A stretch of 64,000 nucleotides of DNA, from positions 279,422-343,421 of the IMG/VR virus record IMGVR_UViG_3300047160_036266; one strand, given 5' to 3'. The notes below the pieces were generated by a model, which saw only the letters and a program-made list of their open reading frames with translations, was not told where the DNA came from and made no database searches. The position numbers and the translations under genes were made by a program. This document shows, one piece after another, positions 37,401 to 51,063 of this stretch. The stretch comes from a virus (taxonomy: Duplodnaviria; Caudoviricetes). Position 1 is the first letter of the stretch; each line of letters starts with the position of its first letter.

Positions 37401-37868
37401 GCTTACCAGCTTGCTGGCCATGTTGACCACATTATCGAGGATGGACTGGACCTTGGACTCAAGACCCTGACTCACTTTCTCGACCGGCGACATCGCCGCA
37501 CGCTCGGCTTTGGCGGCGGGCGGTGCATTGGCGACCGCAGCACTGGCGTTGGCGTACTGCTTGCTCTCGGCAGCTTCCTTAGCAAAGCGAGGATTGATTT
37601 GCTCGATAAGCCGGGCGATATTTTGCAAGACGGGTGTATTCTTTTCGGTAGCTGCCTTGTTAGCAGCGATATTCTCGTTGATCTTATTGAGGGTCTGTTG
37701 CATGGCGGCAAACGAACGCGAGAGGTCTTCCTTCCTCTCCTCGCCCCGGACGGTAGGTGCGCCGACCTTGCCCGTCATAAGGGTCTTTAGCAATTCTTTC
37801 ATCTCGCTGGTGTTCGTAACGAGTGGCTGAATTACTCGACCAAAGGCATCTTCAAAAGCTGCTGCCAT
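25404..37868 (-). CDS. Giant tape-measure protein (4154 aa)
   Basis: Ala/Gly/Leu-rich helical composition, ~80-93-aa internal repeats, a hydrophobic central block, and the canonical position before tube-initiator, LysM, hub and spike genes. Confidence 0.85.
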   Translation of the reverse strand: MAAAFEDAFGRVIQPLVTNTSEMKELLKTLMTGKVGAPTVRGEERKEDLSRSFAAMQQTLNKINENIAANKAATEKNTPVLQNIARLIEQINPRFAKEAAESKQYANASAAVANAPPAAKAERAAMSPVEKVSQGLESKVQSILDNVVNMASKLVSIEKLATSHIKPMALQIKEIHKVAINGKGLIVKDAESTTLLSTISKDIANLGGGKQQPATLDDATKGIEGMQDDLGSLTQAALHKGTVHTKDDQLHKALAAFDKRDQEQTAIISQLKTETQELRQTLDDLVNKVPIGGAAAAAGKPAEAAQHLPAGHAGMPDTIRVGGGGGAGGGGHVVPAGGGGGGGPLPVIDEAAIKVLNAIKAAIDSCCDKISGAVAKLAVAPAGGGLAVVGGGAATGGGAKATADATNKQLEGQEKILHVLEEEEEIGRESLRTQRSYNKLLWARMSLYNDMKRMLFSIENTIMGFTEKGQSALDTLFGGVIKDEVLFIKDVRAAAYEVAGVTGESKLLQRQWENIGTTVKQTGVDRTKFQQAYLKTVKGGIRDLKVAHAVTVAQLNTERQLGMAAGDLGDAFHKWTLEGRMSEMQIAEMGRGMREVARNTGLTGDALKTALGTGQQYITMLRNAAQLTAASAKNVLEIAANAQKLGVQQQMDPLIRAMSSSAELLLKASSETRNVLFVAASKVGRVQDLLEGTVTRTKEGVKDMARGMEEILKGFGVESLEAIDQMSDAAKFKVNVTLKAAYGMELGEFRQSIIAMKESGKGLADRLADINKEREKNLTLEEKATLMEKERALRMSASLSMLTALDEATKGAQNMDQALAKFSERRKDFEGDLQAMGHSWTTSAGAAKTAIEESLKTINAGLLKAGKQELKISTKDIEEALKDPTKFRELGAQLSKGEQELATAQKAQLDPMSKLNQTMMEVNDSIRNFSQKAIHHLLALVGTTGLIATLVATTIGKGILNLITLNKQGLGTIFPVLKKIPYLGPRIFGDFEDELEKKVAAKVPSQTPGGPAPTGPKLPGAPTTTTAGGLLGLKGPEAPALTPTSDDTTHSILQKSLQQLIRILAEIRHCVCRMSDKAVGPRDLGMSKTQQAEYTAGAKAQKEKMKEELKGLTPAQQKEKGKEIAARLRGERIQAAAQTGDPRVHQELLKRQEGLLKREEKMVTNMGPKGVAGQLKRESILQRKEAGLLKQAEVAGPGAGALKATSAGGVDKTLTGKLEGIKKVLNELPDMKEAAQVAGKLFKAAGAFALMAAPIIALMAAMVLLVKAAARAPISPAEAMKAAFTIATTIAAAGIIGLAIFGARKGMAQPEFSTLLDIKGTVQMVGQMFRVAGSLALLSTPILAIMLAMYILVKAIARAPINPSEAMKAAFTIATTIGAAGVIGAALWGADWAMKQKEFKILKNIKLAQRFAMNMWRVTASLGLLSLPILAVMTAMYALVKLIALAPISPTEALKAAFTIATTFLAAGVIGAALWGADWAMKQKEFKLLKNVRLAQRFAGNMWRVTASLGILSLPILAIMAAMYLLVKLVAKAPISPIEAMKAATTIAVTFLAAGIVGGALWVADLGMKQPEFKMLKNVRLAKRFAGNMWRVAASLGILSLPILAVMAAMYGLVKVILKSPITGGDALKVATTIATTVFAAGVVGGALWLADKGMKQPEFKILKDKAKVKELQQELFQAAQGLAMMALPILAVMAAMYLLVKAIAKAPITPSEALKAAFTITVTLIAAGSIGAAIYGADKYMKYMPTIGKAAKLAWQMTKSAIAIGLVMIPTTILLAAMILFIKMIEGMWTLEEAKYAAKLVAATFTAIGIVALGFTAAAAAMMGLGVLAKFAWKLIAAAYLGIIALALLTIPVLALFAAMVLFIKALEALWTVKEAEQAAKLVEASFSAMGLVAIGIVVAGAALIGLGALAYTAPIIIGYAYMGIGAFIAIGIPVLALAAAIILFIKALEGLWTVQQAEEAVKLVQASFTAFGLVAAGIAVGAGIMIGLGALVWAAPIIIGYAWLGIGALIAIGIPVLALAAALIAFIKVLEGLWTVAQAKEAADLTYYTFEAMGITALGILIGGGLLVAFGSLGLGVFWIVGYAWLGIFALALMTPPIAALAAAIIFFIEFLRGLWTVAQAKEAVDLVNYSFEAMGKVALGIIVAGALLAGFGALGWTALWIVKLAWIGIIALALMSPPIIVLGAAILGFIKVLEGLWGTAAKAQDMAKMVEAVFDAMGTVAWNIIKYGALLAGFGLLGWWAVFIAAMMWAGIVAFGIMAQPVQFFIRALLDLGRAIIQGTSAEEAKQIADSFKTLIEAGGVVLKGVEEIKGILIKMGGPSFWGWITGKSAVTEAYETAGMMRKGIIVFGIVKEPVKDFVKQVIDFGEAITANIDAEDAKEIADNVTALMKTMGVVLKAVQESKETLIKMAGRSVWSWITGKSAEKQAEETAETMRTGITVFTTFSKPVKDFAKKVVEFGQEITTSLDADDAKELSDNVQALMKTMGITLQAVQDSKTILMKMGGGSFWAWITGKGAVKEAQQTADLMRTGISVFEEISRPIPDFISKLVDFGTMVTSTIGEDEAKKLGDNLQTVMKAGGAVLDSVNKAKETLVKLGGGSFWSWITGKGAIKEAQETADMMTKGAEVFDIIAAPVVPFISSLMGLGAQITGSMPEEQAKKLGEALETTLKAGGAVFDAVAKTRQTLEELGKTQFKGGFFFWVTKSAKEAATDTANMMEKGAEAFQIIAAPVVPFIASLVGMGRGITGGMSPEEAKKLGEAIGSTLKSGTAVFKAIEKAQRLLSRQPSSTVAKIIADWMWDAVKAFEIMSSPVVYLLRAVLAAAKSIGPAKEAQDAAETMKAIIPVLKAIPKIIHQVVTRLIPIVEKGTHGVSAKDLLAKADEFDKFFSSLATFLGRGIIDPIFYVIGDPRDVKIAADVMKSLVPLIAYIPPVVRMVARNLIPMIEEGTKANEIASKINTSTTKEFNKFFMTLSKFLGQGIIDPIFKVIGDPRDVKIAAEVMKALVPLIASIPPVVWMTVYGLLPMVDAGKYAGQMAKKIDEETTKKFNTFFSVLANFLGKGIIDPIFKVIGDPRDVKIAAESMKAMVPLIASIPPVVWMTVYGLLPMVDAGTYAGKVAANLDAKTTKAFSTFFWALARFLGKGIIDPIFYVIGDPRDVKIASESMQALVPLIKSIPPVIYGIQYGLVPLMQAGDDLAGNVLTQLENSTDNYQDFFKGVFNFIGHGIVDPIIYDIGDPRDLSIAAMSLAGAVRLINLLPKFIVDLANSIKWFNDPPREPNVKTMGDAVKKFGEWFGGISRALGDGIFIPIKTTFPKPQEVQEAQAQLQGMVDLVKKLPKFIEDLAKEMDTFSKAPWWRMQGVIAAQVTIFSEFFRTIAVALGKGILEPIRKYFPESAFFVEVNGRLDGVRNMLPKVGAMIDALSNEMKRLGGTIGVAAQMLNTAWDLFAFGTFFRNIAWNLKAGMIDPVRQWFPPAKVFQELIARLEMVPKFLPAVRKVCEDITNEIKDYGQSFFGIWWRSVKMNWKFRDFAAYFTDIARGISEGMIQPVQVWFPPSSELADLLKRLEIVQKLIPEVRKTIDKMMEEVNKFGREFPTWEDQSKKQMDAFRFAIFFRSLALSISIGIIDPIWRYFPHSRKLEEVVKEIDAVSRILPKVNEVVDAVTTQMNKLNTGPDWDIDLADSTNKFANFFKGAAEAIRTGIIDPIKENFADTEELEGVIDSLEVLNDVLGEMDTVIATLSGTLAGLADVDVDVSGLTKINFGQISDVATTLSKMPPLDAGQLANYMAGGNATASFVNPAALGPGGAGAAPGGGVTPAAAPPKAAGGMAGMDKAMGAALVRANAGPRAPGAAPGGPDEIQQTQDVGVEEALRELISTMVYTQKTQNRFSEQTITTSSQQSTQANVTGVDRAVTGSAKITSKAVADSTTNLTGRITGISQTVGDSVRAATGPLTTSFNQWRDRQTQQQQQQQQAQQQNQQAQAQANQGMTDLANQGLQRGSIYVHDVETMGAVNRLIQTLGGATGVRLEAATEQPATQVAVAQSMTDLHTAMQQRYATDQAPAAATGPLAEMAELTKLTAQTLAVEQEQKELLAKLVEYFKPKPAPVTGMGGEPRRTQNRTIPGRPPRFPDVPMGQAVQSANLGVLPNNFANS
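26740..34160 (-). repeat. About 28 degenerate coding repeats in the tape measure, with exact periods of 261, 246 and 279 nt
   Basis: Anchor motifs recur at 34024/33763/33502/33241/32980/32719 (261 nt), 32497/32251/32005/31759/31513 (246 nt), 30886/30607/30328/30049 (279 nt) and 29134/28888/28642/28396/28150 (246 nt). Confidence 0.9.
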
Positions 37869-38561: not shown

Positions 38562-38840
38562 ATGGCTGAACAACAGTATTGGATTTACCAGTTTGACGAC
38601 GTTCCTATGACGGGCTGCCGCACCATCTGCCGGCACGTCAATCGGGGGTTGACCAGCCGGGGCACGTTGTTTTGCTCGGACTGTCAATGCGAGTGGGAGT
38701 GGGGTGTCCCCCAAGCCGCTCCGCACTTTGAACCGGGCTGGTGCTACACCCAGCGCACCCTTCGGATGCTGGCCCGAATTCTGCCCGAATTCAAGAAGCG
38801 AAGCTTCTTGGATTGGCTGTGCAACCCCGATGGCTTCTAA
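38562..38840 (+). CDS. Small Zn-binding protein (92 aa)
   Basis: Start moved to MAEQQ after AGAGGAGG; CRTICRH and CSDCQC. Confidence 0.7.
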   Translation: MAEQQYWIYQFDDVPMTGCRTICRHVNRGLTSRGTLFCSDCQCEWEWGVPQAAPHFEPGWCYTQRTLRMLARILPEFKKRSFLDWLCNPDGF

Positions 38841-39949
38841 AAGGCGGGATCGCCCACCCGCCCCAGCCGGGTATGTTCGGGCAGGACGCTCCGTACCTTG
38901 GCAGAAAGTTTCTTCATGTGCCACTCGCGCTGGGGCAAGTGGCCATGTTTCTTTATGCGCTCCTTGATGAGCCGCACGAATTCATGCACTTCGGCCCCTT
39001 CGGGCCAGCCAGCAACCCGTGCCACTTCCTTCCAGTTGCCCTTCCCATACGCCTCCACGAAGTCCACAAAAGCTGGATGAGCCTGCGGCCTGGGTGAGTC
39101 CAGCTTATATTCCATCCACTCCCCGAATTTCTTCGGCTGCTGCTGCCGCTGGTTAATCATTTTGAGGAAATACTCCATCAGGGCGTTAAAGCGTTGTCCC
39201 GCCGCCTGCAACTGCCCCTGGTAGGGAGAAACATCCATGCCCCATACCTTTGACTGGCCCTGCTCCTCGAAACCCTTGAAGTAGCGTTCAATCTTGTCGC
39301 TTAACGGAGCCAGGGCCATCATCTTGTTCACGTCGTAAGGCTGGCCGGGATAGTAGCGAGCGTACAGGGCGGCATATTGCTTGGCGTGCGCCCGCAACTC
39401 CCCAGGATCGGTGAAATAGTCGATCTTGCCTTTGTCGTACTCCGGGCTGCCCCTGGGATGGCTTCCACTTAAATATGGATTGGCGTGTTGCTGGTTGCCT
39501 GGCGATACCTTCCCCGATGAAAGGTGCGTCATTTCGTGATGCAGTTGGAAATACAGGCGGGAGATCATGGCCTGAAGGGGCAGGTCGTTATATTCCTTGG
39601 CCTGGGCAATGGTGTTGACGTTCAGGTAGATGTTTAGGATGCTTGTGCCGAAATCGGCACCCGTGTCCTTTTGGGTGGGCTTAATCCTAATCACCAATTG
39701 ATCGCCAATGGGCGACTGGTGGCCCTTGACGGTCGCCGGCACACGGATTTCTACGCCCCGCTCCGGCACGGCCTCGCTGCCGAAGTTCCGCATGACGGCG
39801 AGGCCCTTGGCGTTATCAACGATATACTCGGAAATCCGCTTCTGCTTGTTGTTCTGGAAATACTGGTGCAGGGACTTATTGATGATCCCGAAGGCCGCTT
39901 CTGCGACAGCATCCTCGTATTGTTCGTGGGGGTGGCTAAGGTCATCCAT
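38837..39949 (-). CDS. HExxH metallopeptidase-like protein (370 aa)
   Basis: LHHEMTHL followed by YFTDPGELRAHA. Confidence 0.55.
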   Translation of the reverse strand: MDDLSHPHEQYEDAVAEAAFGIINKSLHQYFQNNKQKRISEYIVDNAKGLAVMRNFGSEAVPERGVEIRVPATVKGHQSPIGDQLVIRIKPTQKDTGADFGTSILNIYLNVNTIAQAKEYNDLPLQAMISRLYFQLHHEMTHLSSGKVSPGNQQHANPYLSGSHPRGSPEYDKGKIDYFTDPGELRAHAKQYAALYARYYPGQPYDVNKMMALAPLSDKIERYFKGFEEQGQSKVWGMDVSPYQGQLQAAGQRFNALMEYFLKMINQRQQQPKKFGEWMEYKLDSPRPQAHPAFVDFVEAYGKGNWKEVARVAGWPEGAEVHEFVRLIKERIKKHGHLPQREWHMKKLSAKVRSVLPEHTRLGRVGDPAF

Positions 39950-39950
39950 A

Positions 39951-40157
39951 TTAGTCAGCGTAACGCATGTCGTCGTAATACTGGCGTGCTGTGCGGGCGT
40001 CTACTTCGCCGGCACCCTTGCACAACTGGCATTCCTCGCCGTCCACTTCACCCTCACCCCGGCAGGCGGGACAGTTGGTGTCGTCATCATAAGGTGAAGC
40101 CAGCTTCCAGGCGTCATAGCCCGGCAGGTTCTCGATGTACTGCTGAAACGTCTTCAT
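39951..40157 (-). CDS. Small protein with a DnaJ-type Zn finger and a capsid-targeting-like N-terminus
   Basis: MKTFQQYIE start; CPACRGEG and CQLCKGAG. Confidence 0.75.
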   Translation of the reverse strand: MKTFQQYIENLPGYDAWKLASPYDDDTNCPACRGEGEVDGEECQLCKGAGEVDARTARQYYDDMRYAD

Positions 40158-40166
40158 TGTTCTCCC

Positions 40167-40661
40167 TTACATCTTCGAGTGGACCAAGTTGCTGTAGTCG
40201 GTGCCAGTGGTGCGGACAATGATCCTGCCTTGCCCGTCCGAATTCTGATCCAGTTCCGCACTGCGGATGTCGTTTTCCGCCTCGGCGCTCTTGGTGAAGA
40301 ACTTCTTGATTTCTTCGGTCACGGCCTGGATAATCTGATGAGCGGCTTCCTCGGCTTTGTAGTCATCGCCCATATAATCGTTGTACATTTCCTCCAGGTC
40401 CAGGGGATATGCCTTGCCGTAGGGGTGGGTCATTTCCTGCTTCTGCACCCGGTAGGCCAGCACGTCACCGATCTTGTAAATACGGATGCCGTCGAAGGAC
40501 AAGCTCTTCGTGGGACTTTTGACGAAGAGAAAAGGGTCATCCTCGTTAAGATGGTCGGTGACGCCAATCCCCTGGCGTTCGAGCAGCTTCTTAACCAAAC
40601 CTAAGTGCCGTTTGCTCTCCCGCATCTTCTTGTCTACAAACTCGATGAATCCTTGTGGCAT
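40167..40661 (-). CDS. Hypothetical protein (164 aa)
   Basis: Clean ORF in the minus-strand operon. Confidence 0.7.
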   Translation of the reverse strand: MPQGFIEFVDKKMRESKRHLGLVKKLLERQGIGVTDHLNEDDPFLFVKSPTKSLSFDGIRIYKIGDVLAYRVQKQEMTHPYGKAYPLDLEEMYNDYMGDDYKAEEAAHQIIQAVTEEIKKFFTKSAEAENDIRSAELDQNSDGQGRIIVRTTGTDYSNLVHSKM

Positions 40662-41520
40662 GTTGGTATCTAGTCCTGAACCTGGGATTTCTCGGCGTCG
40701 TGTGATTATGATAGCCGTTCTTCCGAAGAAAATGCGCGTAGAACCGATCCAGCAGGCTCAGGTCCGATACGAACATGAAACCGTTATTGTCTCGAAAGAG
40801 CGGAGCGTGGTACATCATAAAGGCCGTCTGGGGCCTGCCCCACCAGTACAAGAACAGATAGTCGGGCATTATGCAAAAGCACGGCACCCCGGTAGCCCAG
40901 GCCATTTGCGCCACCGCACTGTGGGTGCCAATCACAAACTCGGCGTGACGTACCAGATCGAATAGTTGCCGCAGATTGGTATGATTCAGTAGGTTAATCG
41001 CACCCTTGATATGAAGACTTTCTGCCTTGAAATAGGAATTATCCTCGGTGAACAACTCTCCGCTGTAATCGTAATAGCAGTCCTTGCCGACAAGGACCGG
41101 AAATAAACCCATCTTATAGGCTTGGTCGCACAGCAGTTGTACCACCGGGGTTTCTATGTCCTTGTCGCTGCTCGACATGGCGTGCAAGACTATGTACTTG
41201 CCGGGAGGTCGCAGTGACTCCCCTTCGAGTAGCGGGATTTCAATTTGGTGTGCCGGGGCCTGCGGCGGCGGGTACAGGCTGAAGGTTCTGGCATGTGCTT
41301 CGATCACTCGTGCTACGTTGGGGCTGGTCCCCAGCAGTTCCGTCATGGTTCCTTGCTGGGAAGAGTTGTTGATGACAAATACCTTCCTGTCCCAGCAGGC
41401 GTAGGGGCCGTTAAACAGCATGTAGATGCAGTCTCCCAGCCCTCCGGTCAATTCAACGGTGTTATACTCCGGCTCTTTCCTGGGCAAGTGCCTGAGCGTC
41501 CTAAAAAGCCGAAACCTCAT
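40591..41520 (-). CDS. Glycosyltransferase family 9-like
   Basis: TGGLGDCIYM, YIVLHA and LVRHAEFVIGTHSAVAQMAWATGVPCF. Confidence 0.75.
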   Translation of the reverse strand: MRFRLFRTLRHLPRKEPEYNTVELTGGLGDCIYMLFNGPYACWDRKVFVINNSSQQGTMTELLGTSPNVARVIEAHARTFSLYPPPQAPAHQIEIPLLEGESLRPPGKYIVLHAMSSSDKDIETPVVQLLCDQAYKMGLFPVLVGKDCYYDYSGELFTEDNSYFKAESLHIKGAINLLNHTNLRQLFDLVRHAEFVIGTHSAVAQMAWATGVPCFCIMPDYLFLYWWGRPQTAFMMYHAPLFRDNNGFMFVSDLSLLDRFYAHFLRKNGYHNHTTPRNPRFRTRYQHATRIHRVCRQEDAGEQTALRFG

Positions 41521-41538
41521 CCCATAAAAGAGAAGATA

Positions 41539-42879
41539 TTAGCAGTTACGCAACAGTATTTCTGGGGCCGAAGGCACGCAGCGCTGCAACACACGCAGGT
41601 CAGACGGGTTGCCCTGGTACGGGGTTTCCTTGAACACGATGCCCTGGAAGGAGGTAGACGCTTCCCGGATGATGTTAAGTTGCGCCGTGAGGAACAGGGT
41701 TCCTTCTCGCCGCACCATGAACTCGTGGTCCTCCATTTCTGGCTCGCCGTCCTCGTCGGTTTGGCCGGTTTCTTTCTGGTAGAGGATTTTCAGGTCCATG
41801 AAGGGAATGATGGCCCCGTTGTCATCAATCATGGCCTCAGACTCCTCGCCCATGCTGGTTTTGACGATCAACTTGCCGTCCGTGTAAGCGGAGCGCAGGG
41901 AGTTGGTCAAGTCCCAGCCCAAGGTGTAGACGGTTCCATCCGTGCCCACCACGTTGGCGACGAAAGCCCTGGTCTTAAAAGTCTCGGCTATACTTTCCAT
42001 GACCACCCGGCGTCTCAACACATCCTTTTCTTCCGGGCTGCCTTCGTCCAGCCGTTTCAATTCCGGTTCGGAAAGGTAACGCTCCGGGTCGTCTTCCCGT
42101 AGGCTCCATTTGCCGATGTCAACCATACCGAAGCGAGCGTTAAACCGGGTGGACAAGCGGATGGAATATTCCTTCTCATTATAAATCACGTCCTCGGCGT
42201 TGCCGCCAGTACCAACCTGCACCCCGCCAATTAAGGCGGCAATATATTTCCGGTGCAGGTCGCCCTTCATGCCCAGACAGCCGTTCAGCTTGATGAAGAT
42301 GTTGTTTAGCTCTGGATGCGTCTGGAGAGTGTTCCAAATATGGTTCACCACCGATACCGAAGGGTTGTTCTGGTCCAGTTCTTCGCGCAGCAGCTTCCGA
42401 ATTTCCTTGGAAGCCTGGTCGATGTTGGCGTTCTGCCGCAAGAACTGCACCTGAAGGTTGTCCTCCACGAACTTCCGGGGGTAGGTGTCCAGGTCCAGGT
42501 CACGAATCTGGTGAATCATGTCGATGAGCTTCTGGGTGTCGCCCTTGATGGACTCCTTGAAATACAGGTTCTTCCACTGCTCGAAGTCCGGGGACTCCCC
42601 GCCCTGGTCCTTGGGCATGTCCGGTGCCTGGGGATCATTGGTCACGTCCGGCTGGTCGCCGGGCTTGCTGCCGGCCTGGTCCTTGGGTGGCGTTCCCATC
42701 TGGTTTGGCGGCGGGTTGGCGATGCTTGGATCGCCGGGTGGCGGGCCAGGCGCACCCGCTCCTGGCATCCCAGGAGGCCCGGCAGTGCCTCCTGGTTGGC
42801 CCGCTTGGGGGTCTGGCCCCCAGCCTGCACCCGGAGATTGTTCGGCAATTAGCCAGTCGTCAATAATGATTTGCGTCAT
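41539..42879 (-). CDS. Hypothetical protein (446 aa) with a Pro/Gly-rich disordered N-terminus
   Basis: Long ORF coupled to the upstream gene (ATGA); no family recognised. Confidence 0.75.
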   Translation of the reverse strand: MTQIIIDDWLIAEQSPGAGWGPDPQAGQPGGTAGPPGMPGAGAPGPPPGDPSIANPPPNQMGTPPKDQAGSKPGDQPDVTNDPQAPDMPKDQGGESPDFEQWKNLYFKESIKGDTQKLIDMIHQIRDLDLDTYPRKFVEDNLQVQFLRQNANIDQASKEIRKLLREELDQNNPSVSVVNHIWNTLQTHPELNNIFIKLNGCLGMKGDLHRKYIAALIGGVQVGTGGNAEDVIYNEKEYSIRLSTRFNARFGMVDIGKWSLREDDPERYLSEPELKRLDEGSPEEKDVLRRRVVMESIAETFKTRAFVANVVGTDGTVYTLGWDLTNSLRSAYTDGKLIVKTSMGEESEAMIDDNGAIIPFMDLKILYQKETGQTDEDGEPEMEDHEFMVRREGTLFLTAQLNIIREASTSFQGIVFKETPYQGNPSDLRVLQRCVPSAPEILLRNC

Positions 42880-43379
42880 TTCTTCTCGTCCTTCTTGGGT
42901 TCGTCCTTTTTGGTCATGTTCTCGATCAACTCGATGAGGGCACGACGATTGCCGCTGGTGTCGCCTATATTTACGGTGACGTTTTCTTGTTTTGCGTTCT
43001 GAACCTTGACCGGAATCGTTTCCTTGAGCTTCAGCCGGGTCATCTCGCTGGCGATCTTCGACATCTTATCGGGGATGTCACTCTTGATTTTCATGAGGTT
43101 GACCAAAGCTTCCTTGGAAGCGGTGGTCGAGTCCCCTTCGTTAATGACAAGTTCAGCAAAGCTGGTAATGTACTGATCGCATTCCCGCCGGTCGTCCCGG
43201 CACATTTTGAGGATTTCCTGGTAGACATCGAGCAACACAGCGTCTTCAATAATGGAAGGTGGTGGGGCCGGCAGCGGACGCTCCGGCAAAACCTCGTACT
43301 CCTGGGAGGGCACGGAATTCAGGCCGTTCAACCCGGCTTCGATTTCAGTAATCACGGCTGCATCAATTTGTTTCGGCAT
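42876..43379 (-). CDS. Helical protein, weakly like a T4-type small terminase
   Basis: Helical core then QNAKQENVTVNIGDTSGNRRALIELIE, reminiscent of the gp16 C-terminus; ORF is solid, function is weak. Confidence 0.35.
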   Translation of the reverse strand: MPKQIDAAVITEIEAGLNGLNSVPSQEYEVLPERPLPAPPPSIIEDAVLLDVYQEILKMCRDDRRECDQYITSFAELVINEGDSTTASKEALVNLMKIKSDIPDKMSKIASEMTRLKLKETIPVKVQNAKQENVTVNIGDTSGNRRALIELIENMTKKDEPKKDEKK

Positions 43380-43429: not shown

Positions 43430-44281
43430 ATGATTGAACTCCACAACGGACACAGAATGGATTTCTTGTGCGCTAGTGGAGCATTGGGCTTGGACGGCCA
43501 GGGATACTTCTGGGAGTGGCCGCTCGTGTACGCCAACATCATCCGCCCCCACGAACTTACCATCATCACCAAGACGCTCACCCGCTTCCCCTGCCCTGGC
43601 AACCTGTCCTGGTGGCATCCCTGGACTTGCTTTCGGTTCATCAAGGACGGGACCGTAAACAGCGTGGGCCTCAGCAACCCCGGCATCCGTTGGTGGATCA
43701 AACATTTCCCTCGCTTCCCGCAATACAAGTTCATCATTTCCATCCTGCCTACCAGTGTGCGGGAGGCTGCCTTTATGGCCCAGATGCTCAACCCTCTGCC
43801 CGTGGTGGGGATCGAGTTTAATGCTTCCTGCCCCAACGGTGAGGAATGGACCGAAGACAAAATCTGTGAACTTAGCAGCACCTTGGCCCTCGCCTCGCGC
43901 CACCCCGTCATCGTCAAGTTGGGCTACACCCAGCCGTATGTGCGCGTATGCGAGCATCTGGATGGGGTGGTTGCGGCCTTTGATCTAATAAACAGTGTGC
44001 CGTGGCCAGAAATCTTCCCCAATGCAGCCTCGCCCCTGAACCCGTCCGGCGGCGTTTCGGGAGCGGTCATCGTTCATCAAGCCAGGGAAGCGTTATGGAA
44101 GGCCAAGGTCGTAACCACCAAGACCCCCATTATTTCCGGCGGCGGCATCAACGACATGAGAGAAGTGGTGGTACGGCGGTGCATGGGTGCGGAAGCCTGG
44201 ACCTTCGGCACCCTCTTTCTGCGCAAACCCTGGCTGCCCAATCGGATAGCCGCCAGTTTGCGGAAGCTCTGGCTCTATTAG
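43430..44281 (+). CDS. pyrD: Dihydroorotate dehydrogenase (family 1-like)
   Basis: ASG, TKT, VNSVGLSNPG, FNASCPN (catalytic Cys), VIVKL, LINS, GGVSG and PIISGGGI. Confidence 0.9.
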   Translation: MIELHNGHRMDFLCASGALGLDGQGYFWEWPLVYANIIRPHELTIITKTLTRFPCPGNLSWWHPWTCFRFIKDGTVNSVGLSNPGIRWWIKHFPRFPQYKFIISILPTSVREAAFMAQMLNPLPVVGIEFNASCPNGEEWTEDKICELSSTLALASRHPVIVKLGYTQPYVRVCEHLDGVVAAFDLINSVPWPEIFPNAASPLNPSGGVSGAVIVHQAREALWKAKVVTTKTPIISGGGINDMREVVVRRCMGAEAWTFGTLFLRKPWLPNRIAASLRKLWLY

Positions 44282-44284
44282 GCC

Positions 44285-44887
44285 ATGAAGGCTATATATT
44301 TCCGCACAATCTGCGAAGTGGGCGTCGGACCACCAGAGTGGTCGCAATTTAGTGACATACTCGATACCGCCTGCTACCGAAAAGCCCTGTTGATCGACCC
44401 CGACCCAGGCTTTTGTGCGGCGTTGCGTCAGCGCTGGCCCGACCCACGGGTGCAGGTCTGTGAAAATGCCGTGATCGAGGGAAAACCCCGCCCGGTGGAA
44501 ATGATAAATTGCTCAGCGACCACCTATGTCAAGGGCATCAAACACTGCCCTGCGATGGAGGCCGGATATGACCATACCAACAAGGACCAATACTTCCTTG
44601 ACCACGATCTAAACCCGGCGGACTATCCCAACTACACGACGGCAGGTGTGCCGTTCTCATGCTTGGACGATGGCGAGATTGACGTGCTGGCGGCAGATTG
44701 TGAAGGGTCTGAATGGTTTGTGTTGCAGGACATGCGCAGCCGACCCTGGTTCATTCGCCTGGAAACCAGTTACGAGCATCCTTACCGCCAGGAGATTGCC
44801 AACTGGTTAGCACGCGAGGGTTACGAGGAAATAATACGGGATGGGTCGGATACTTTGTGGAAGAAAACGTGGCCGGTGGATAAATAG
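44285..44887 (+). CDS. FkbM-family SAM methyltransferase
   Basis: EVGVG, LLIDPDP and IDVLAADCEGSEWFVL (DxEGxE). Confidence 0.8.
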   Translation: MKAIYFRTICEVGVGPPEWSQFSDILDTACYRKALLIDPDPGFCAALRQRWPDPRVQVCENAVIEGKPRPVEMINCSATTYVKGIKHCPAMEAGYDHTNKDQYFLDHDLNPADYPNYTTAGVPFSCLDDGEIDVLAADCEGSEWFVLQDMRSRPWFIRLETSYEHPYRQEIANWLAREGYEEIIRDGSDTLWKKTWPVDK

Positions 44888-44919: not shown

Positions 44920-46653
44920 ATGAGAACCAAATTTGAAGAGTATCTGTTGTTCAAGGAAGCCGAAGAAAACGGCGATTCTGACAATCATCACGGTGATTCG
45001 GACAAGCATTACGGTGATTCTGACAAGCATCACGGTGATTCTGACAAGAAGAGTGATGGCGGCGGTTCGTCCGGGGGCAGCGCGAGCGGTCCCGGCGACG
45101 AAGTTAGCCAGAAGGCCAAGTCGCTCATCACATCGAAAATCAAGTTGCAGAAGAAGGAGGGCAGCAACGAGTTCGCTCCGTTCACGGTGGACCGTGCCAG
45201 CCATCCGAACCTGCGCTACCTCATTAAAGCATTTGCAGATTCCGATAAAGTCGGCCTTGGTTATACCACTATTGACAAGACCAAGGGCGAAATGGAGCCG
45301 ATGCTAAAGAAAAAGACGCTACACCTTACCGGCGGGGCTGTGCGTGACCACCTGAAGGGCAAAACCCCTCGAAATTATGATCTGGTCACGGATGCCACGC
45401 CAAGTGAAATGCGCATGATCCTATCCAACCCCGAACACGGTTTTACGGAAGTCCAGCCCCGTGACCCAAAGTTGGCCCAGGATGAGCGCTATCATGAGCT
45501 ACCTCCAGCGGGTAGCAGGAACAAAGTCTTCTATCCAAGCCGCTGGGATAAACAGGGCAAGGAACTTGAATTCACGGTTGAAATCAACGGGGAGAAATTT
45601 GATCTTGCTACCCTATCCAAACACTCGAAGAGTCGCCGGGTCAGCCCGGATAAAGGCGAGTCCGCATCTTCCGTTGAGGAAGATTCCCTAAACCGGGACT
45701 TCACCATCAACGGCATGTATATCCCGCTCAACCAAAGCGATGGAGAGAACTCCGACTTGGTGGACCCACATGGCGGTGCCCACCACCTGAAAAATGGTGA
45801 GGTCGTCGCCATCGGGAGCCTGATTGACAAGCTGCGGGCTGATCCTTCAACCTCACAGCGATATGTCAAGATGCTGAGCCGCTTCGGCAACCCGGACAAG
45901 ATTCCAGACAAATATAAGGCCACCATCGAGCGATACAAGGACATGCAGGATGTGGACAAGGGCCACGTCCGCAAGGAATTCCTTTCCGGCCTCGAAAACC
46001 CCGACGTGGACCCACGCAAGTATCTGGGTGCCTATAGCAAACTCGGTCTAATGGGAGCGGTGTTCCCCGGACATGACTTCAATCCCGACGAGATGCCGCC
46101 GGACTTCAAGGGCGACCGCTGGCTCGCACCAGCCTGGGTTCTTCGCAAAGGCGATCCCCAACAGGTTATGCAGATGTTAGTTGGCCAGGGCTGGTCCAAG
46201 CAGGAGGCCCAGGACATCACCCACCTGATAAAGATGGCTCAGTGGGCCGACAAGGGCTTCGACGCTGACCAAATGTACGATCTGAAGAACAGTCACAACG
46301 GCTTGACGAAAAACAAGCAGCGTGAGTGGATGCAGATGATCGGCAAGCAGGGGAACCAGTCCGATGCCTACTTTATGCACGATGACAAAGACCTTGCCAA
46401 GATGGTAGACGGCCCGGACGGGAAGAAGCAGATCAACCCCAAGTTCCACCAACACCTGGGCCGCACGCCCAAGCCGGGCGAGCTAGAGGGCGTCCGCAAG
46501 GACTTGTCCAAGAATCGCTTCGTGGACATGCTCAATAAGCTCAAGCATCATAAAGCCGGTGGCGAGGATAAGGACAAGGACAAGCCGTTCCCTTCTCACG
46601 ACTCTGAAGATAAGAAGCAGGAGTGGGTTTCCGTGGCGGCTTTCCGCTACTAA
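44920..46653 (+). CDS. Class II nucleotidyltransferase (CCA-adding/poly(A) polymerase family) with substituted catalytic motifs
   Basis: GGAVRD, PRNYD, EEDSLNRDFTINGM and LVDPHGG. Confidence 0.85.
   Translation: MRTKFEEYLLFKEAEENGDSDNHHGDSDKHYGDSDKHHGDSDKKSDGGGSSGGSASGPGDEVSQKAKSLITSKIKLQKKEGSNEFAPFTVDRASHPNLRYLIKAFADSDKVGLGYTTIDKTKGEMEPMLKKKTLHLTGGAVRDHLKGKTPRNYDLVTDATPSEMRMILSNPEHGFTEVQPRDPKLAQDERYHELPPAGSRNKVFYPSRWDKQGKELEFTVEINGEKFDLATLSKHSKSRRVSPDKGESASSVEEDSLNRDFTINGMYIPLNQSDGENSDLVDPHGGAHHLKNGEVVAIGSLIDKLRADPSTSQRYVKMLSRFGNPDKIPDKYKATIERYKDMQDVDKGHVRKEFLSGLENPDVDPRKYLGAYSKLGLMGAVFPGHDFNPDEMPPDFKGDRWLAPAWVLRKGDPQQVMQMLVGQGWSKQEAQDITHLIKMAQWADKGFDADQMYDLKNSHNGLTKNKQREWMQMIGKQGNQSDAYFMHDDKDLAKMVDGPDGKKQINPKFHQHLGRTPKPGELEGVRKDLSKNRFVDMLNKLKHHKAGGEDKDKDKPFPSHDSEDKKQEWVSVAAFRY
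44971..45054 (+). repeat. 4 x 21-bp coding repeat (GDSDxHH)
   Basis: ggcgattctgacaatcatcac / ggtgattcggacaagcattac / ggtgattctgacaagcatcac / ggtgattctgacaagaagagt. Confidence 0.95.
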
Positions 46654-49313
46654 CCCTTCTTCGTATATCCGGGCTGCCCCTCAAGGTCCAGAATGTGCAA
46701 CTCGTCCATCGCACGAGTGTAAGCAACGTATTTCGCGTTGGCTTCCTGTGCCAAGTCCTCTGGACGCTGGGCCTTGGGGTGCGGGAACTGGTCGTCGCGC
46801 AGAATATACACCCTGCTGAACTCCAGTCCTTTTGACTTGTGGGCCGTCGTCAGGATGACGGGATTCTGCTCCTCGACCTTCCGGCGATATTCATTCAGAT
46901 CGCGCTCGTTCTCGGCTACATCCAGACCCGACAAATTGGCCTTCAGCCAGGCTTTGAACTGGCTGATCGTCTTTTGCGCCGGCCTGCGGCCTCGATCATC
47001 AGGGTAATCATCGCTCATCTCCGGGGCGAACATACCAATACAGTTCACCAACGCCTGGGTGGTATCCCGCAGTTCTTGCATCATCGCCCGCTTGGAGTTC
47101 GGCTGGCCCTGGTCCTCGAAACGGTCGTCTTCCTTTTGCTGGTGATCCTGCAACTTGTCCTTCAGGTCCGATATGGGCTGGTAATCGGTCGTACCCGTCA
47201 TGCGCATAATCTTGGCGATATGCTCCAACAAGTCCTTGGCCACGTCTTTGCCGACGATGATAAACGGCACCGCACTCGCCAGAAGCTTCAAGGCAGCGTT
47301 GACCAGCGGCTCGTTGGTCCGGGAGATAAACGCCGTGGGCTTGATATTGCCCTCCATTTTCTCCTTGCGCAACTGGCCGAAGGCGTCTTCGTATTTCAGT
47401 TCCTTGTGCGTGACCTCGCCCTCGCCGCCGTCCTTGAAGACCTTGCCCTGTTGCAAGTTGTTGACGTGAGTATTCTGGTTGGCGTAATCCAAGATGGCTT
47501 TGCGAGAGCGGAAATTCTTGGACAGGGTGAAAGGTTTCCAGCCCTCTTTATTGGCTGATAAGCCGCCCAACTGCTCGGCCAGATTATTGAAGGCGTCACC
47601 GTCAGCGCCCCTGAACCGATATATAGCTTGGTTGGGGTCGCCCACGGCCACTATTTTAGCGCCGGCATCATGAAGCTTCTTTAGGGCGATCTTCTGGTTC
47701 TCGTTGAAATCCTGCACTTCATCCGCCAGCACCACGTCATAATGCGGCCAGTGCAGTTCCTCGGCGTGGATGGAGGCATACCACAGGTCATCGTTGAAAT
47801 CCCGGAACTGCCCCATGTTGTATTCAAAATCATCCTTCTTCAAGACATGCTGCGAGGCGTGCGGGAGGGTTTCATCCAGCATCCACATCGTCGCCTGCAT
47901 CATCTCCTGCTTGTAGTTCTTCTTCATGAAGTCGTAGCCCAGGATGCGGCGCAGGTGGCCGGTGATCGTGGCATAGTAGCTGGGACTGTCGGCGTAACGG
48001 TCGATTCTCTCTTTCACGTCGCTCAGGCTGGTGTCGATGTCGTACTTGTCCATGACCTTCTCCAGCTTGGGCTGGACCTCGGCTTTATTGCGAGGATCGA
48101 GGGAATAGGACTTGGCCAGCCCCGTCAAGGTCAGGACTTCCTCCTTGAAAATATATTGCATCGAGTTGAGGATGCTGGTAAGCGTCTTCTTGATCTTGCT
48201 GTCGGCGGACACCATCTGGGCGGCATCCTTATTGGGAATGCCAAGGCTCTGGACCAATTGATTGAACTGCGGGGAATAGGTGGCGAGAATGCGGGCCTTC
48301 TCGATCATGCCCTTTTCGCCTGGGTGGTTCTTGCTAATCTCCACCGTGCGGCTCGTCTGGCGGATGCGGCCCTTGTTCTCCGGCGATCCAATCACCCTCC
48401 CCAAGAAGCCGTTGGTCGTTTCGACCTGCACCCATTGCGGAAACTTTTCTTTGGCCTCGACTTTGTTCTTGGTGTTGAAGACCAAATAGAGCCACTTCTG
48501 GCCGGGGTTGCCATATTTCCAGGCCAGGTGCTTGAGCATGGTGGTTTTGCCCGATCCAGCCAGGGCGTTAATCATGATGTGATCTTGGGTGCCGCCCTCC
48601 ATGATCTGCTTGAACTTCTCGTCAATCTGGCGCTGTTCGCTTTTCTCGCCGGGGGCGGTGCCGCTGTCCAGCATCTCGTCGGAGAGGATATGCTTGTTTC
48701 CTACGGGGCCGGCGGGGCTGGGCTTGGCCGGCTCTGGGGCCGGATCGGCATGGGGCCTGACGTGGGCCATAAGGTCTTCGATATTCTTGGACGTGATCGG
48801 CTGACCCGTCTCTTCGTCCTTGACGGACGTGACGATGTTCTTGACGGCCTCGCCAGGAATGATGGCGGTTCTCTTCTCGGCGTCCAGGGAGATCATCTCC
48901 CAGGAGGCGTCTTTTCGCTTGGCCAGGGCAACGTCCTGTCCGATGCGGAAACCCTGGGAGTTGTTGCCGGTGATTTTGGCCAATACCCAGGTTGGTCCGG
49001 CGGCTGGTTGCATGGAAGGTAAAGCCCTCGCTGGTGGACGCTCCTCCGGCGGGGGAGCAGCGGGTGGTTCGGGTCTTGGAGCAGGATGGGGAGCCGGTTT
49101 AGCAGCGGGCTTGGCTGCCCGACGCTTGGCTAGTTCCTCTTCAATTTCTCTACGGAATTCGGGGCTGATGAGTCCGGGATTATCGACGTTTTGCAAGGCC
49201 CAGGTCAGCCAGCCGCTATCAACTTCGCTGTGGTGCTTCCCTCGATGTTTGCCGAATCCAAACACACCCTCGTTCGTAAGGGTGAGCCAGCTTTTGAAAG
49301 TGAGTGTGTCCAT
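46650..49313 (-). CDS. UvrD/Rep-family SF1 helicase with an N-terminal extension and Pro-rich linker
   Basis: ALAGSGKTT, DEVQD, VGDPNQAIYRFRGA, LSKNFRS, TAHKSKGLEF and YVAYTRA. Start moved to 49313 because the longer ORF start crosses a terminator. Confidence 0.92.
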   Translation of the reverse strand: MDTLTFKSWLTLTNEGVFGFGKHRGKHHSEVDSGWLTWALQNVDNPGLISPEFRREIEEELAKRRAAKPAAKPAPHPAPRPEPPAAPPPEERPPARALPSMQPAAGPTWVLAKITGNNSQGFRIGQDVALAKRKDASWEMISLDAEKRTAIIPGEAVKNIVTSVKDEETGQPITSKNIEDLMAHVRPHADPAPEPAKPSPAGPVGNKHILSDEMLDSGTAPGEKSEQRQIDEKFKQIMEGGTQDHIMINALAGSGKTTMLKHLAWKYGNPGQKWLYLVFNTKNKVEAKEKFPQWVQVETTNGFLGRVIGSPENKGRIRQTSRTVEISKNHPGEKGMIEKARILATYSPQFNQLVQSLGIPNKDAAQMVSADSKIKKTLTSILNSMQYIFKEEVLTLTGLAKSYSLDPRNKAEVQPKLEKVMDKYDIDTSLSDVKERIDRYADSPSYYATITGHLRRILGYDFMKKNYKQEMMQATMWMLDETLPHASQHVLKKDDFEYNMGQFRDFNDDLWYASIHAEELHWPHYDVVLADEVQDFNENQKIALKKLHDAGAKIVAVGDPNQAIYRFRGADGDAFNNLAEQLGGLSANKEGWKPFTLSKNFRSRKAILDYANQNTHVNNLQQGKVFKDGGEGEVTHKELKYEDAFGQLRKEKMEGNIKPTAFISRTNEPLVNAALKLLASAVPFIIVGKDVAKDLLEHIAKIMRMTGTTDYQPISDLKDKLQDHQQKEDDRFEDQGQPNSKRAMMQELRDTTQALVNCIGMFAPEMSDDYPDDRGRRPAQKTISQFKAWLKANLSGLDVAENERDLNEYRRKVEEQNPVILTTAHKSKGLEFSRVYILRDDQFPHPKAQRPEDLAQEANAKYVAYTRAMDELHILDLEGQPGYTKKG

Positions 49314-49340
49314 GCTGGGATTATTTAGCACCGCAGGTGC

Positions 49341-49387
49341 AAAAAGAAAACCCCGGCGATCCCATTTCTGGAACCGCCGGGGTTTTC
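49341..49387 (-). terminator. Strong rho-independent terminator ending the candidate ncRNA
   Basis: GAAAACCCCGGCG-GTTCCA GAAA TGGGAT-CGCCGGGGTTTTC then TTTTT: 13 perfect pairs plus 6 pairs (two G.U) and a GAAA loop. Confidence 0.9.
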
Positions 49388-50215
49388 CCAGCAGATCAGT
49401 TTCCACACTCCGCACACGCGCTTTCGCGTTTGCTATGCAGAAGTACGAAGTGCGCCAATTGAGTCCGTCATCCTTTGGTGTTATTGCAGCTTTCCACAAG
49501 GTATGTCTGCCTGCTCAGGCCATTTGGACCCGCCGCTGACCCTGTGGCGTGACAGTATGAGGTTTGCGAACGGCTTGCACCTTCTCACTCCCTTGGGGTT
49601 TGAACGCCGGTTCCTACTTCTGCCCAACGCTTTGCAGCGTCATGCGTCCCATAGCACCACCAACGCCCTTGCCTTACGGTCGCTCCTCGGCTCTTGCCGT
49701 CACCTTGACCCCATACCCTCCTCATCTTAACGCCGGAGGAGTAGCGTCGTTTCGTGGGCGGCTTTTTGCGTGCCGCCAGGCTCAGCACCGATATGCTCGC
49801 TCGCCAGCGATGCTCCGTTAATGAGCGGAGGGCTTTTCAGCGGGGCACTGCTACTCCCCGCCGTATACCCCTCGGTGCAACCAGGACTCTCGCATCCACC
49901 GCTCAGGCACCCTTTTGGGGCGGCGTTCCTAAGCGTTCATCAGGACACCTGTTGCGGCCTATTTACCCCCTGCCCATTTCTGGTCAAAGGGCTGCTTAGC
50001 CACCATCCTGGTTCCGACTGCCTGCCGTGGTTTCCCGGATCAAATCCCCCTCCAGAGCAAGTCTTGAAGGTTTCATCTCCCCGTTGTGCCGAATAGCACT
50101 CCCTACCCTCGGTCTTGGTTTTCGTCTCGGCGGGATTTTTCACCCGTCCGATTGCCCACGGCCTTCCCGTTTCCCCGCCCCCTTTCCAGAGAGCGGGCGG
50201 ACTCGTCAACCCGGT

Positions 50216-50343: not shown

Positions 50344-51063
50344 ATGAAGTCCGACAAGAGCCTACTCCCGGAATTTCCACGAACACGCCACCTGCCGTAC
50401 AAGCCCAATGCTGTGCGGGACGATCTGGTGGCGTCGGAGGATGATTGCGCCGTAATCTTCACCCTGGCAACCGTTTACGTCGAGGAGAAAGTGGACGGGG
50501 CCAACAGCGGCATGATGTTCTATGAGGACCGCCCCATAATAAGAAACAGGAGCCATGTGCTGAACAAGGGCTACCTGAAGGACACCCCGGCCAAGGTCCA
50601 GTTCCGCCCGATCTGGAACTGGTTTTATCAGAATAAGAAGTCCTTCGCTGATATAAACCGCATGGCGGGCGGTTCCGTGGGAATATATGGGGAGTGGATG
50701 TACGCCCTGCACGGGATCGAGTACGACCGGCTGCCCGACTGGTTCATCGCCTATGATGTCTACGACCCGGAGGCAGGAAAGTTTCTGGACACGGCCAAGG
50801 CCCGCCATCTATTGGAGGCGGCTGGCTTCCAGACCACGCCCTTCCTCCACGGCGGTCCCGTCGAAAGCTGGGAGCAGCTAGAGCGGTTCTGCCACGAACC
50901 CTCGGCGTTTTCTGGCAAGGACCGGCGGGAAGGGGTTTATATCAAGGTGTCGGACGGGCGATTCACCACCCACCGTTTCAAAATGGTGCGGGGCGATTTT
51001 ACCCAGGGATGCAAGTGGAACGAGAAGAGGATCACCAAGAACCAACTCTTCAAGGGGAAATGA
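50344..51063 (+). CDS. ATP-dependent RNA ligase (Rnl2-like nucleotidyltransferase domain)
   Basis: FPRTRHL, EEKVDGAN (KxDG), YGEW, FIAYDV, EGVYIK and KMVRGDF. Confidence 0.88.
   Translation: MKSDKSLLPEFPRTRHLPYKPNAVRDDLVASEDDCAVIFTLATVYVEEKVDGANSGMMFYEDRPIIRNRSHVLNKGYLKDTPAKVQFRPIWNWFYQNKKSFADINRMAGGSVGIYGEWMYALHGIEYDRLPDWFIAYDVYDPEAGKFLDTAKARHLLEAAGFQTTPFLHGGPVESWEQLERFCHEPSAFSGKDRREGVYIKVSDGRFTTHRFKMVRGDFTQGCKWNEKRITKNQLFKGK

Follow-up and report, generated by a model that had tools for sequence, protein, structure and literature searches.

The window analysed here is a 64-kb stretch (G000:C1:279422-343421) of a 343-kb virus record, G000 being the label of its source genome, a giant soil phage of the huge T4-like type whose nearest GenBank phage is the uncultured, 595-kb phage LR756511.1. 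On the plus strand of the window, at 44920-46653, lies a gene for a homologue of the class II CCA-adding enzymes. Its catalytic motifs are degenerate, its fold is kept under selection, and the protein begins with a leader that resembles the capsid targeting sequence (CTS) of phage T4. The open reading frame (ORF) is complete at 577 residues and has no frameshift, as an earlier note on this DNA had stated; the same 577-residue protein is also recorded, in a protein collection, on a contig of 669,797 bp. The features of the gene, all on the plus strand, are listed with their evidence in brackets, pLDDT being the predicted local distance difference test score.

44920-46653, plus strand: class II CCA-adding-enzyme homologue with degenerate catalytic motifs, complete 577-residue ORF (open frame, Pfam, HMMER, AlphaFold2, Foldseek)
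44879-44886, plus strand: GATAAATA, a box similar to the late promoters of T4, which overlaps the stop of the preceding FkbM gene and lies some 35 nt ahead of the ATG (sequence)
44920-44958, plus strand: residues 1-13, MRTKFEEYLLFKE, putative T4-like CTS ending at a putative (L/I/F)-x-E protease site (homologue conservation, comparison with T4)
44959-45126, plus strand: residues 14-69, disordered acidic and His-rich linker with GDSDKHH-type repeats, of varying length among relatives (pLDDT <50 at 16-60)
45127-45306, plus strand: residues 70-129, clade-specific Lys-rich N-terminal beta/alpha domain (pLDDT 82-98 over 71-130)
45331-45381, plus strand: motif A, GGAVRDHLKGKTPRNYD (residues 138-154), with the GG..RD part intact and DxD reading NYD (N152 is AAT at 45373-45375)
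45601-45618, plus strand: strand FDLATLS, with D228 at the third-carboxylate position and S233 in place of Arg (family columns, intact relatives)
45676-45711, plus strand: motif B region, EEDSLNRDFTIN, with RRD reading NRD (N258 at 45691-45693)
45763-45792, plus strand: motif C region, DPHGGAHHLK, conserved and common to the intact tagged LR756511 relative (alignment)
45838-45864, plus strand: motif D, the templating EDxxR, reading ADPSTSQRY, with Glu replaced by A307 and Arg by T311 (T311 at 45850-45852)
45865-46554, plus strand: residues 316-545, neck, body and tail, all helical and rich in conserved basic residues (pLDDT >90, Foldseek)
46555-46653, plus strand: residues 546-577, disordered C-terminal tail and stop codon, overlapping the 3′ end of the convergent helicase gene (AlphaFold2, ORF)

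The head domain is recognised by Pfam as PolyA_pol (PF01743, E = 6.5e-19, 68.9 bits against a cut-off of 23), and the protein also matches the phage family phrog_2244, ‘tRNA nucleotidyltransferase’. An AlphaFold2 model has a mean pLDDT of 87 and a predicted template-modelling score of 0.78, with a short N-terminal helix (4-16), a disordered linker (16-60) and, between about residues 70 and 555, a body modelled with confidence. The best PDB matches found by Foldseek are the CCA-adding enzymes of T. maritima, Planococcus, human mitochondria and B. stearothermophilus, aligned over ∼460-500 columns, a span from which it follows that the complete head-neck-body-tail architecture is kept; alignments to the listed full-length class II enzymes cover 430-535 columns, with target-normalised template-modelling scores of 0.56-0.67 for the best CCA-adding matches. 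Both results agree with the view of the earlier note that the rest of the head and neck fold is intact. Membership of the PcnB or CCA equivalog families of NCBIfam was considered and rejected, the best score, to TIGR01942, being 62.5 bits against 305.65, and the CCA equivalogs scoring 15-40 bits against cut-offs of 290-624. The N-terminal domain (70-129) is conserved in the degenerate clade described below and largely also in LR756511; it has no counterpart in the canonical CCA paralogue of the same genome, and ordinary CCA enzymes are without such a Lys-rich domain. Many basic residues are conserved across this domain, the body and the tail. The isoelectric point of the protein is ∼6.8, and neither this nor domain charge is informative as a proxy for RNA binding. 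The linker is a run of imperfect GDSDKHH repeats, and its length differs between close-relative proteins of 577, 564 and 563 residues.

The motifs were placed by HMMER alignments to solved class II CCA enzymes and to E. coli poly(A) polymerase (PAP). A search of 5.8 billion proteins gave 262 matches; family column counts are taken from the best ∼120 of these (47-89% identity to the window protein), the conservation profile and the AlphaFold2 input comprise 119 homologues, and the intact state is represented by 12 intact relatives from the same clade that bear the same N-terminal leader and are called tagged here. In motif A, N152 aligns to the first Asp of the DxD pair in the PDB sequences, so that the NxD change which the earlier note had read directly from the letters is upheld, and it is conserved among homologues: column 152 holds Asn in 106, Gly in 10 and Asp in 2, and column 154, the second Asp, holds Asp in 108 and Asn in 12. 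Across the best 120 relatives almost every motif A reads NYD, with a few GYD, NYN, DYN or SYD. The third carboxylate is present in the window protein as D228, but its column is free to vary in the family (Glu in 37, Asn in 29, Asp in 12; Lys, Arg, Ser, Tyr or His in close relatives), and the Arg of the ‘...ATFR’ strand, kept in all 12 intact tagged relatives, is S233.

The substitutions that the earlier note reported in EEDSLNRD and DPSTSQR are present in the translation, but two of its motif labels are wrong. EEDSLNRD (residues 253-260), which it called templating, is motif B, with N258 aligned to the first Arg of RRD, and the stretch it named motif D (‘DPLRxxR’) is itself the templating EDxxR; in DPSTSQR (residues 308-314) and the residue before it, A307 and T311 align to the Glu and Arg of EDxxR. 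It is therefore T311 that stands in for the templating Arg, and N258 marks a loss from motif B, whose RRD contacts ribose and triphosphate. Column 258 is occupied by Asn (103), Gly (12) or Ser (3), motif B reading NRD, GRD or SRD across the best 120 relatives, and column 311 by Thr (104), Ile (6) or Met (3), against Arg at each position in every one of the 12 intact tagged relatives. Neither R259 nor D260 varies, and columns 308 (the Asp of EDxxR) and 309 hold Asp in 119 and Pro in 118.

Sites that are conserved yet differ from the 12 intact relatives are D152N, D162S, R233S, R258N, R311T, G208R, V217E and G219T, a pattern that reads as a coordinated dismantling of the nucleoside triphosphate and metal site. 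The framework of the pocket is invariant or nearly so among the 119 homologues (G138, G139, R142, D143, R259, D260, D282, G285, G286 and D308), and the window protein also retains R314 there. Since the first metal-binding Asp, R233, R258 and the templating R311 are all lost and the third carboxylate is no longer constrained, the protein is very probably unable to add nucleotides.

These losses are maintained. The codons vary synonymously between metagenomes (N152 as AAT or AAC, N258 as AAC or AAT, T311 as ACC, ACG or ACA), and the ratio of non-synonymous to synonymous substitution (dN/dS, pairwise Nei-Gojobori, pairs without saturation) is 0.068 between the window and its closest relative, L005 (dS 1.46), and 0.091, 0.045 and 0.053 in three further pairs. 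The gene is under strong purifying selection. Because the substitutions are shared by ∼120 relatives, with synonymous codon variation and low dN/dS (0.05-0.09), they are neither error nor decay, and the maintained pseudo-enzyme, one of the two readings offered by the earlier note, is the better description. That the protein is both non-catalytic and selected can be held with high confidence.

A tree of 114 representatives, obtained by a quick tree search, places the window protein among 20 fully degenerate sequences that form a clade with 99% support. This clade is nested in a second one, also with 99% support, in which the basal LR756511.1 homologue and P0122 keep DxD, the third Glu, RRD and EDxxR; P0128, P0132, P0135 and P0146 branch further out and are likewise intact. 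The homologues around the degenerate clade are huge-phage proteins of ∼500 residues, and the degenerate form descends from intact tagged enzymes. There are also intermediates: P0125 (KRD) and P0126 (TRD) have lost the first Arg of motif B alone, and P0129 has GRD together with ESR and has lost little more. The state ‘all motifs intact’ needs at least six changes on the tree, so motif loss recurred in several lineages, and further-diverged members of the family lose even GGxVRD.

The leader at the N-terminus follows a family consensus, MxxxFxxYxxLREE, in which F5 is nearly invariant and E13 invariant among the 119 homologues. The consensus ends in LRE, as expected of an (L/I)-x-E-type site, while the window protein has Phe rather than Leu or Ile at the P3 position. 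In T4, the internal proteins ipII and ipIII start MKTYQEFIAE and ipI starts MKTFKEFTS (NC_000866); residues 4 and 7 of the T4 CTS govern targeting and residues 8 and 10 govern processing by gp21 (PMC9026906). Ten residues of CTS are enough for loading foreign proteins (PMC10229621), T4 packages 20-200 fusion proteins per particle (PMC9026906), and its internal proteins are diverse, with the CTS their only common feature (PMC3012670). Among ORFs of at least 150 residues in G000, the tag pattern follows 16 of 384 first Mets and 6 of 2301 internal Mets, a 16-fold enrichment; with any in-frame ATG allowed, it is found at 42 starts among 845 ORFs. The genome encodes a prohead protease of the gp21 type (Peptidase_S77, PF03420, 90.3 bits, G000:C1:251315-251725). 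The tag is on both intact and degenerate forms, and since the intact relatives bear it too, it is older than the catalytic loss.

Upstream of the gene, the GATAAATA box is a candidate late promoter. Of the 11 relatives displayed, 10 (LR756511 among them) have an ATAAATA or TAAATAA box 25-45 nt before the ATG, with none visible in L013, and a similar box precedes several other tagged ORFs in G000; genome-wide, TAAATA is hardly enriched (89 observed against 80 expected). It is likely, on the resemblance to T4, that the window protein is packaged in the virion. The phage collection searched contained no cultured relative with a virion proteome, and the Atu_ph07 enzyme in it is canonical and untagged. 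Convergent with the gene, a UvrD-like superfamily 1 helicase (window 46650-49499, minus strand) has an in-frame internal ATG at 49313 that gives a product of 887 residues starting MDTLTFKSWLTLTNE, which has the head-tag pattern, and CTAAATAA lies 15 nt upstream of this internal start; the helicase may be another packaged enzyme.

The genome of the window also holds a separate, intact CCA paralogue of 405 residues (G000, C1:56147-57364), with DTD, RRD and EDRLR. This second gene, like the loss at S233, the free third carboxylate and the T4-like N-terminus, had escaped the earlier note. The paralogue starts MHYASLAAEV and has no tag, and canonical second copies elsewhere have tag-like leaders: L018 (G002) MNFKQWLLTEE, L114 (G007) MKFKNWLLKEEE and L113 (G018) MKFKLWLENEE. 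None of the 12 tRNA genes found by ARAGORN in G000 (G000:C1:99858-129931, outside the window) encodes its 3′ CCA, so the phage tRNAs need a CCA-adding activity. The copies of PF01743 are distributed over the genomes as follows, completeness being that estimated by CheckV, which is approximate for huge phages.

Degenerate and canonical copies: G000, G002, G007, G008, G018
Degenerate copy only, genome rated complete: G005 (100%, 533 kb)
Degenerate copy only, fragment records: G001, G006, G019, G020, G021, G023
Intact tagged form only: LR756511, G009 (98%), G011 (98%), G014 (100%), G012 (59%, fragment)

A strict pairing of the degenerate with the canonical copy is ruled out by G005, which is rated complete and has the degenerate gene alone.

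Synteny was compared over 12 loci, LR756511 among them, and every one of them has the divergent layout in which g164-p446-p167 occupy the minus strand and the CCA-like gene the plus strand. In the window, g164 (40167-40661), p446 (41539-42879) and p167 (42876-43379) are minus-strand genes within 38837-43379 that match nothing in Pfam or PHROG; they come after baseplate genes and a gp2-like DNA end protector, and for this reason are probably virion genes. A single ORF of 4154 residues (25404-37868, minus strand) lies in the tail and baseplate region. Between p167 and the CCA-like gene (43430-44887, plus strand) are a gene for a DHO_dh-fold flavoenzyme-like protein (283 residues) and one for an FkbM-type methyltransferase (200 residues), and an RNA ligase (PF09414, E = 2.3e-28; 50344-51063, plus strand) lies just past a large non-coding RNA (ncRNA). 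The DHO_dh-like gene, the methyltransferase, the UvrD-like helicase, the ncRNA and the RNA ligase accompany the CCA-like gene in L005 only; helicase, ligase and CCA-like gene together give the locus an RNA-repair flavour, again in this nearest relative only. The tie to the neighbouring ncRNA raised by the earlier note was not sustained: the 900-nt RNA adjoins the gene in L005 only, and BLAST gave no match in G001, G002, G005 or LR756511, a sequence search that could miss a diverged RNA. No tRNA or Rfam element was found within the 64-kb window.

Taken as a whole, the interpretation that seems somewhat favoured is that the window protein descends from a capsid-targeted phage class II CCA-adding enzyme, has lost catalysis while being maintained by selection, is packaged in the head and acts by binding after injection. 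Despite its losses it keeps the whole architecture of a tRNA enzyme, together with GGAVRD, R259-D260, D308 and R314. By analogy with T4, the tagged protein would be made late, loaded into the core of the prohead, trimmed of its leader by the gp21-type protease and ejected with the DNA into the next host. There it would carry out no tRNA repair, and would instead bind stoichiometrically to an RNA 3′ end, a tRNA-like ligand or a host factor; any particular ligand is proposed with much less confidence than packaging.

Several points weigh against this interpretation. The case for packaging is one of sequence resemblance, and the association of the tag with motif loss is not significant once phylogeny is counted, there being too few informative pairs. 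In 90% of the family D154 is still present, and position 217, Val in the intact relatives, has become a conserved Glu (E217) on the same face of the sheet; a rebuilt single-metal site is conceivable. The degenerate copy stands alone in G005 (100%, 533 kb), so a canonical partner is not obligatory. The numbers injected by T4, 20-200 per fusion protein (PMC9026906), are far below what sequestration of bulk tRNA would need, and a low-copy target is consequently more likely, which might be a host defence factor, a specific RNA or an RNA cargo.

A non-catalytic protein need not be packaged. The canonical CCA gene occurs in G000 and four further genomes that have the degenerate form, and 12 phage tRNA genes without an encoded 3′ CCA mean that CCA-less tRNAs occur in infected cells; a cytoplasmic partner, regulator or competitor of the phage or host CCA enzyme, or a chaperone of the CCA-less phage tRNA transcripts, would suit both observations, its N-terminal motif then serving some other purpose. 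This is unlikely, though it deserves consideration, because the leader fits the T4 CTS at the determinant positions, ends in x-E with an invariant E13 and precedes a disordered linker, the genome has a gene for a gp21-type protease, the late-type box is conserved upstream, and G005 has no canonical partner.

The rival treated as the main one holds that the protein is still an enzyme, with a rewired site (N152, D154, E217 and an EDPxT motif) that would use another metal geometry, nucleotide, acceptor or chemistry at RNA 3′ ends; the earlier note had likewise allowed for an altered specificity. Its pocket is not drifting, the replacements being conserved (Asn 88%, Asn 86%, Thr 87%, P309 98%) and GGAVRD, R259-D260 and D308 invariant or nearly so, and a Glu is conserved at 217 where the intact relatives have Val. 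The metal-ligand columns nevertheless accept non-carboxylates in the clade (152 N/G/S/T/K, 154 D/N/H/Q, 228 E/N/D/K/R/S/Y/H), three arginines kept by all intact relatives are lost together, and further-diverged members lose GGxVRD too. No class II enzyme is known to function without DxD, and a rewired activity appears quite unlikely.

An outside chance may be given to a more specific form of binding, in which an RNA-holding cargo protein would clamp the 3′ end of a tRNA or other RNA and leave it unaltered, either as a carrier of RNA into the capsid for co-injection or as an injected decoy or inhibitor acting against a host defence that is aimed at tRNA 3′ ends or senses phage CCA enzymes. If true, either role would add a new class to the phage ejection proteins, one repeatedly derived from a translation-repair enzyme. 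A purely structural internal head protein (core, filler or DNA-associated), for which the fold is a mere scaffold with no RNA or nucleotide ligand, is highly improbable. The pocket and many basic surface residues are near-invariant and dN/dS is ∼0.05-0.09 over the whole length, more constraint than a filler needs, and the isoelectric point of ∼6.8 sets the protein apart from the T4 internal proteins, which are small and basic. Such a role would fit the recurrence of motif loss across several tagged clades, with at least six state changes, and the diversity of T4 internal proteins, which have only the CTS in common (PMC3012670). Ordinary gene decay, or a sequencing or assembly error at N152, can be set aside even though Asn codons are one transition from Asp codons, as the same states recur in >100 independent metagenomic sequences with synonymous codon variation, low dN/dS, an intact ORF and a confident model.

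A selected, non-catalytic derivative would bear on how these genes are read. Their public name is ‘tRNA nucleotidyltransferase/poly(A) polymerase’, it is attached to hundreds of metagenomic huge-phage proteins, and such annotations are counted as phage translation machinery; the degenerate clade almost certainly does not perform the annotated reaction. In the literature searched, huge-phage CCA enzymes appear solely as genes for tRNA repair or translation (PMC7162821, PMC7824862), and no description of inactive or packaged forms was found there. Within the family, intact, partly degenerate and fully degenerate CCA enzymes form a natural series, useful for following how the pocket of a templating polymerase is dismantled while the fold and RNA-binding scaffold stay selected. 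Provided that the head tag is functional, both CCA enzymes and inactive derivatives of them are injected by huge T4-like phages; this would enlarge the known set of ejection proteins and suggest a conflict over tRNA 3′ ends early in infection.

The nearest systems to compare are the class II tRNA nucleotidyltransferases (T. maritima 5HC9/3H39, Planococcus halocryophilus 6QY6, B. stearothermophilus 1MIV), which have the PF01743 head and the head-neck-body-tail fold in common with the window protein. From them it has retained GGxVRD, the second Arg and the Asp of RRD, the Gly pair of motif C and the Asp of EDxxR, whereas the first catalytic Asp has become Asn, the third carboxylate is free, the first Arg of RRD has become Asn and the templating Arg Thr; its additions are a 60-residue N-terminal domain, a ∼45-residue insertion in the head, the propeptide-like tag and the disordered linker. 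E. coli PAP I (PcnB) shares the Pfam head-domain family of the window protein, resembles it weakly at the level of NCBIfam subfamilies, and unlike it keeps DxD, RRD and EDxxR. Closer are the intact tagged huge-phage homologues (the 508-residue LR756511.1 protein, 580680-582206, and P0122), ∼40% identical, with the same tag, N-terminal domain, head insertion and g164-p446-p167 neighbourhood; they keep DYD, RRD and EDQLR and, unlike the window protein, also match PF12627. The leader is most like that of T4 IPI, IPII and IPIII and other CTS ejection proteins, which likewise have a short leader with two aromatics three positions apart and then (L/I)-x-E, and as in T4 the genome that encodes the tagged protein also has a gene for a prohead protease of the gp21 family. 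The T4 internal proteins are unrelated to nucleotidyltransferases, while the predicted cargo here is a 560-residue enzyme-derived protein.

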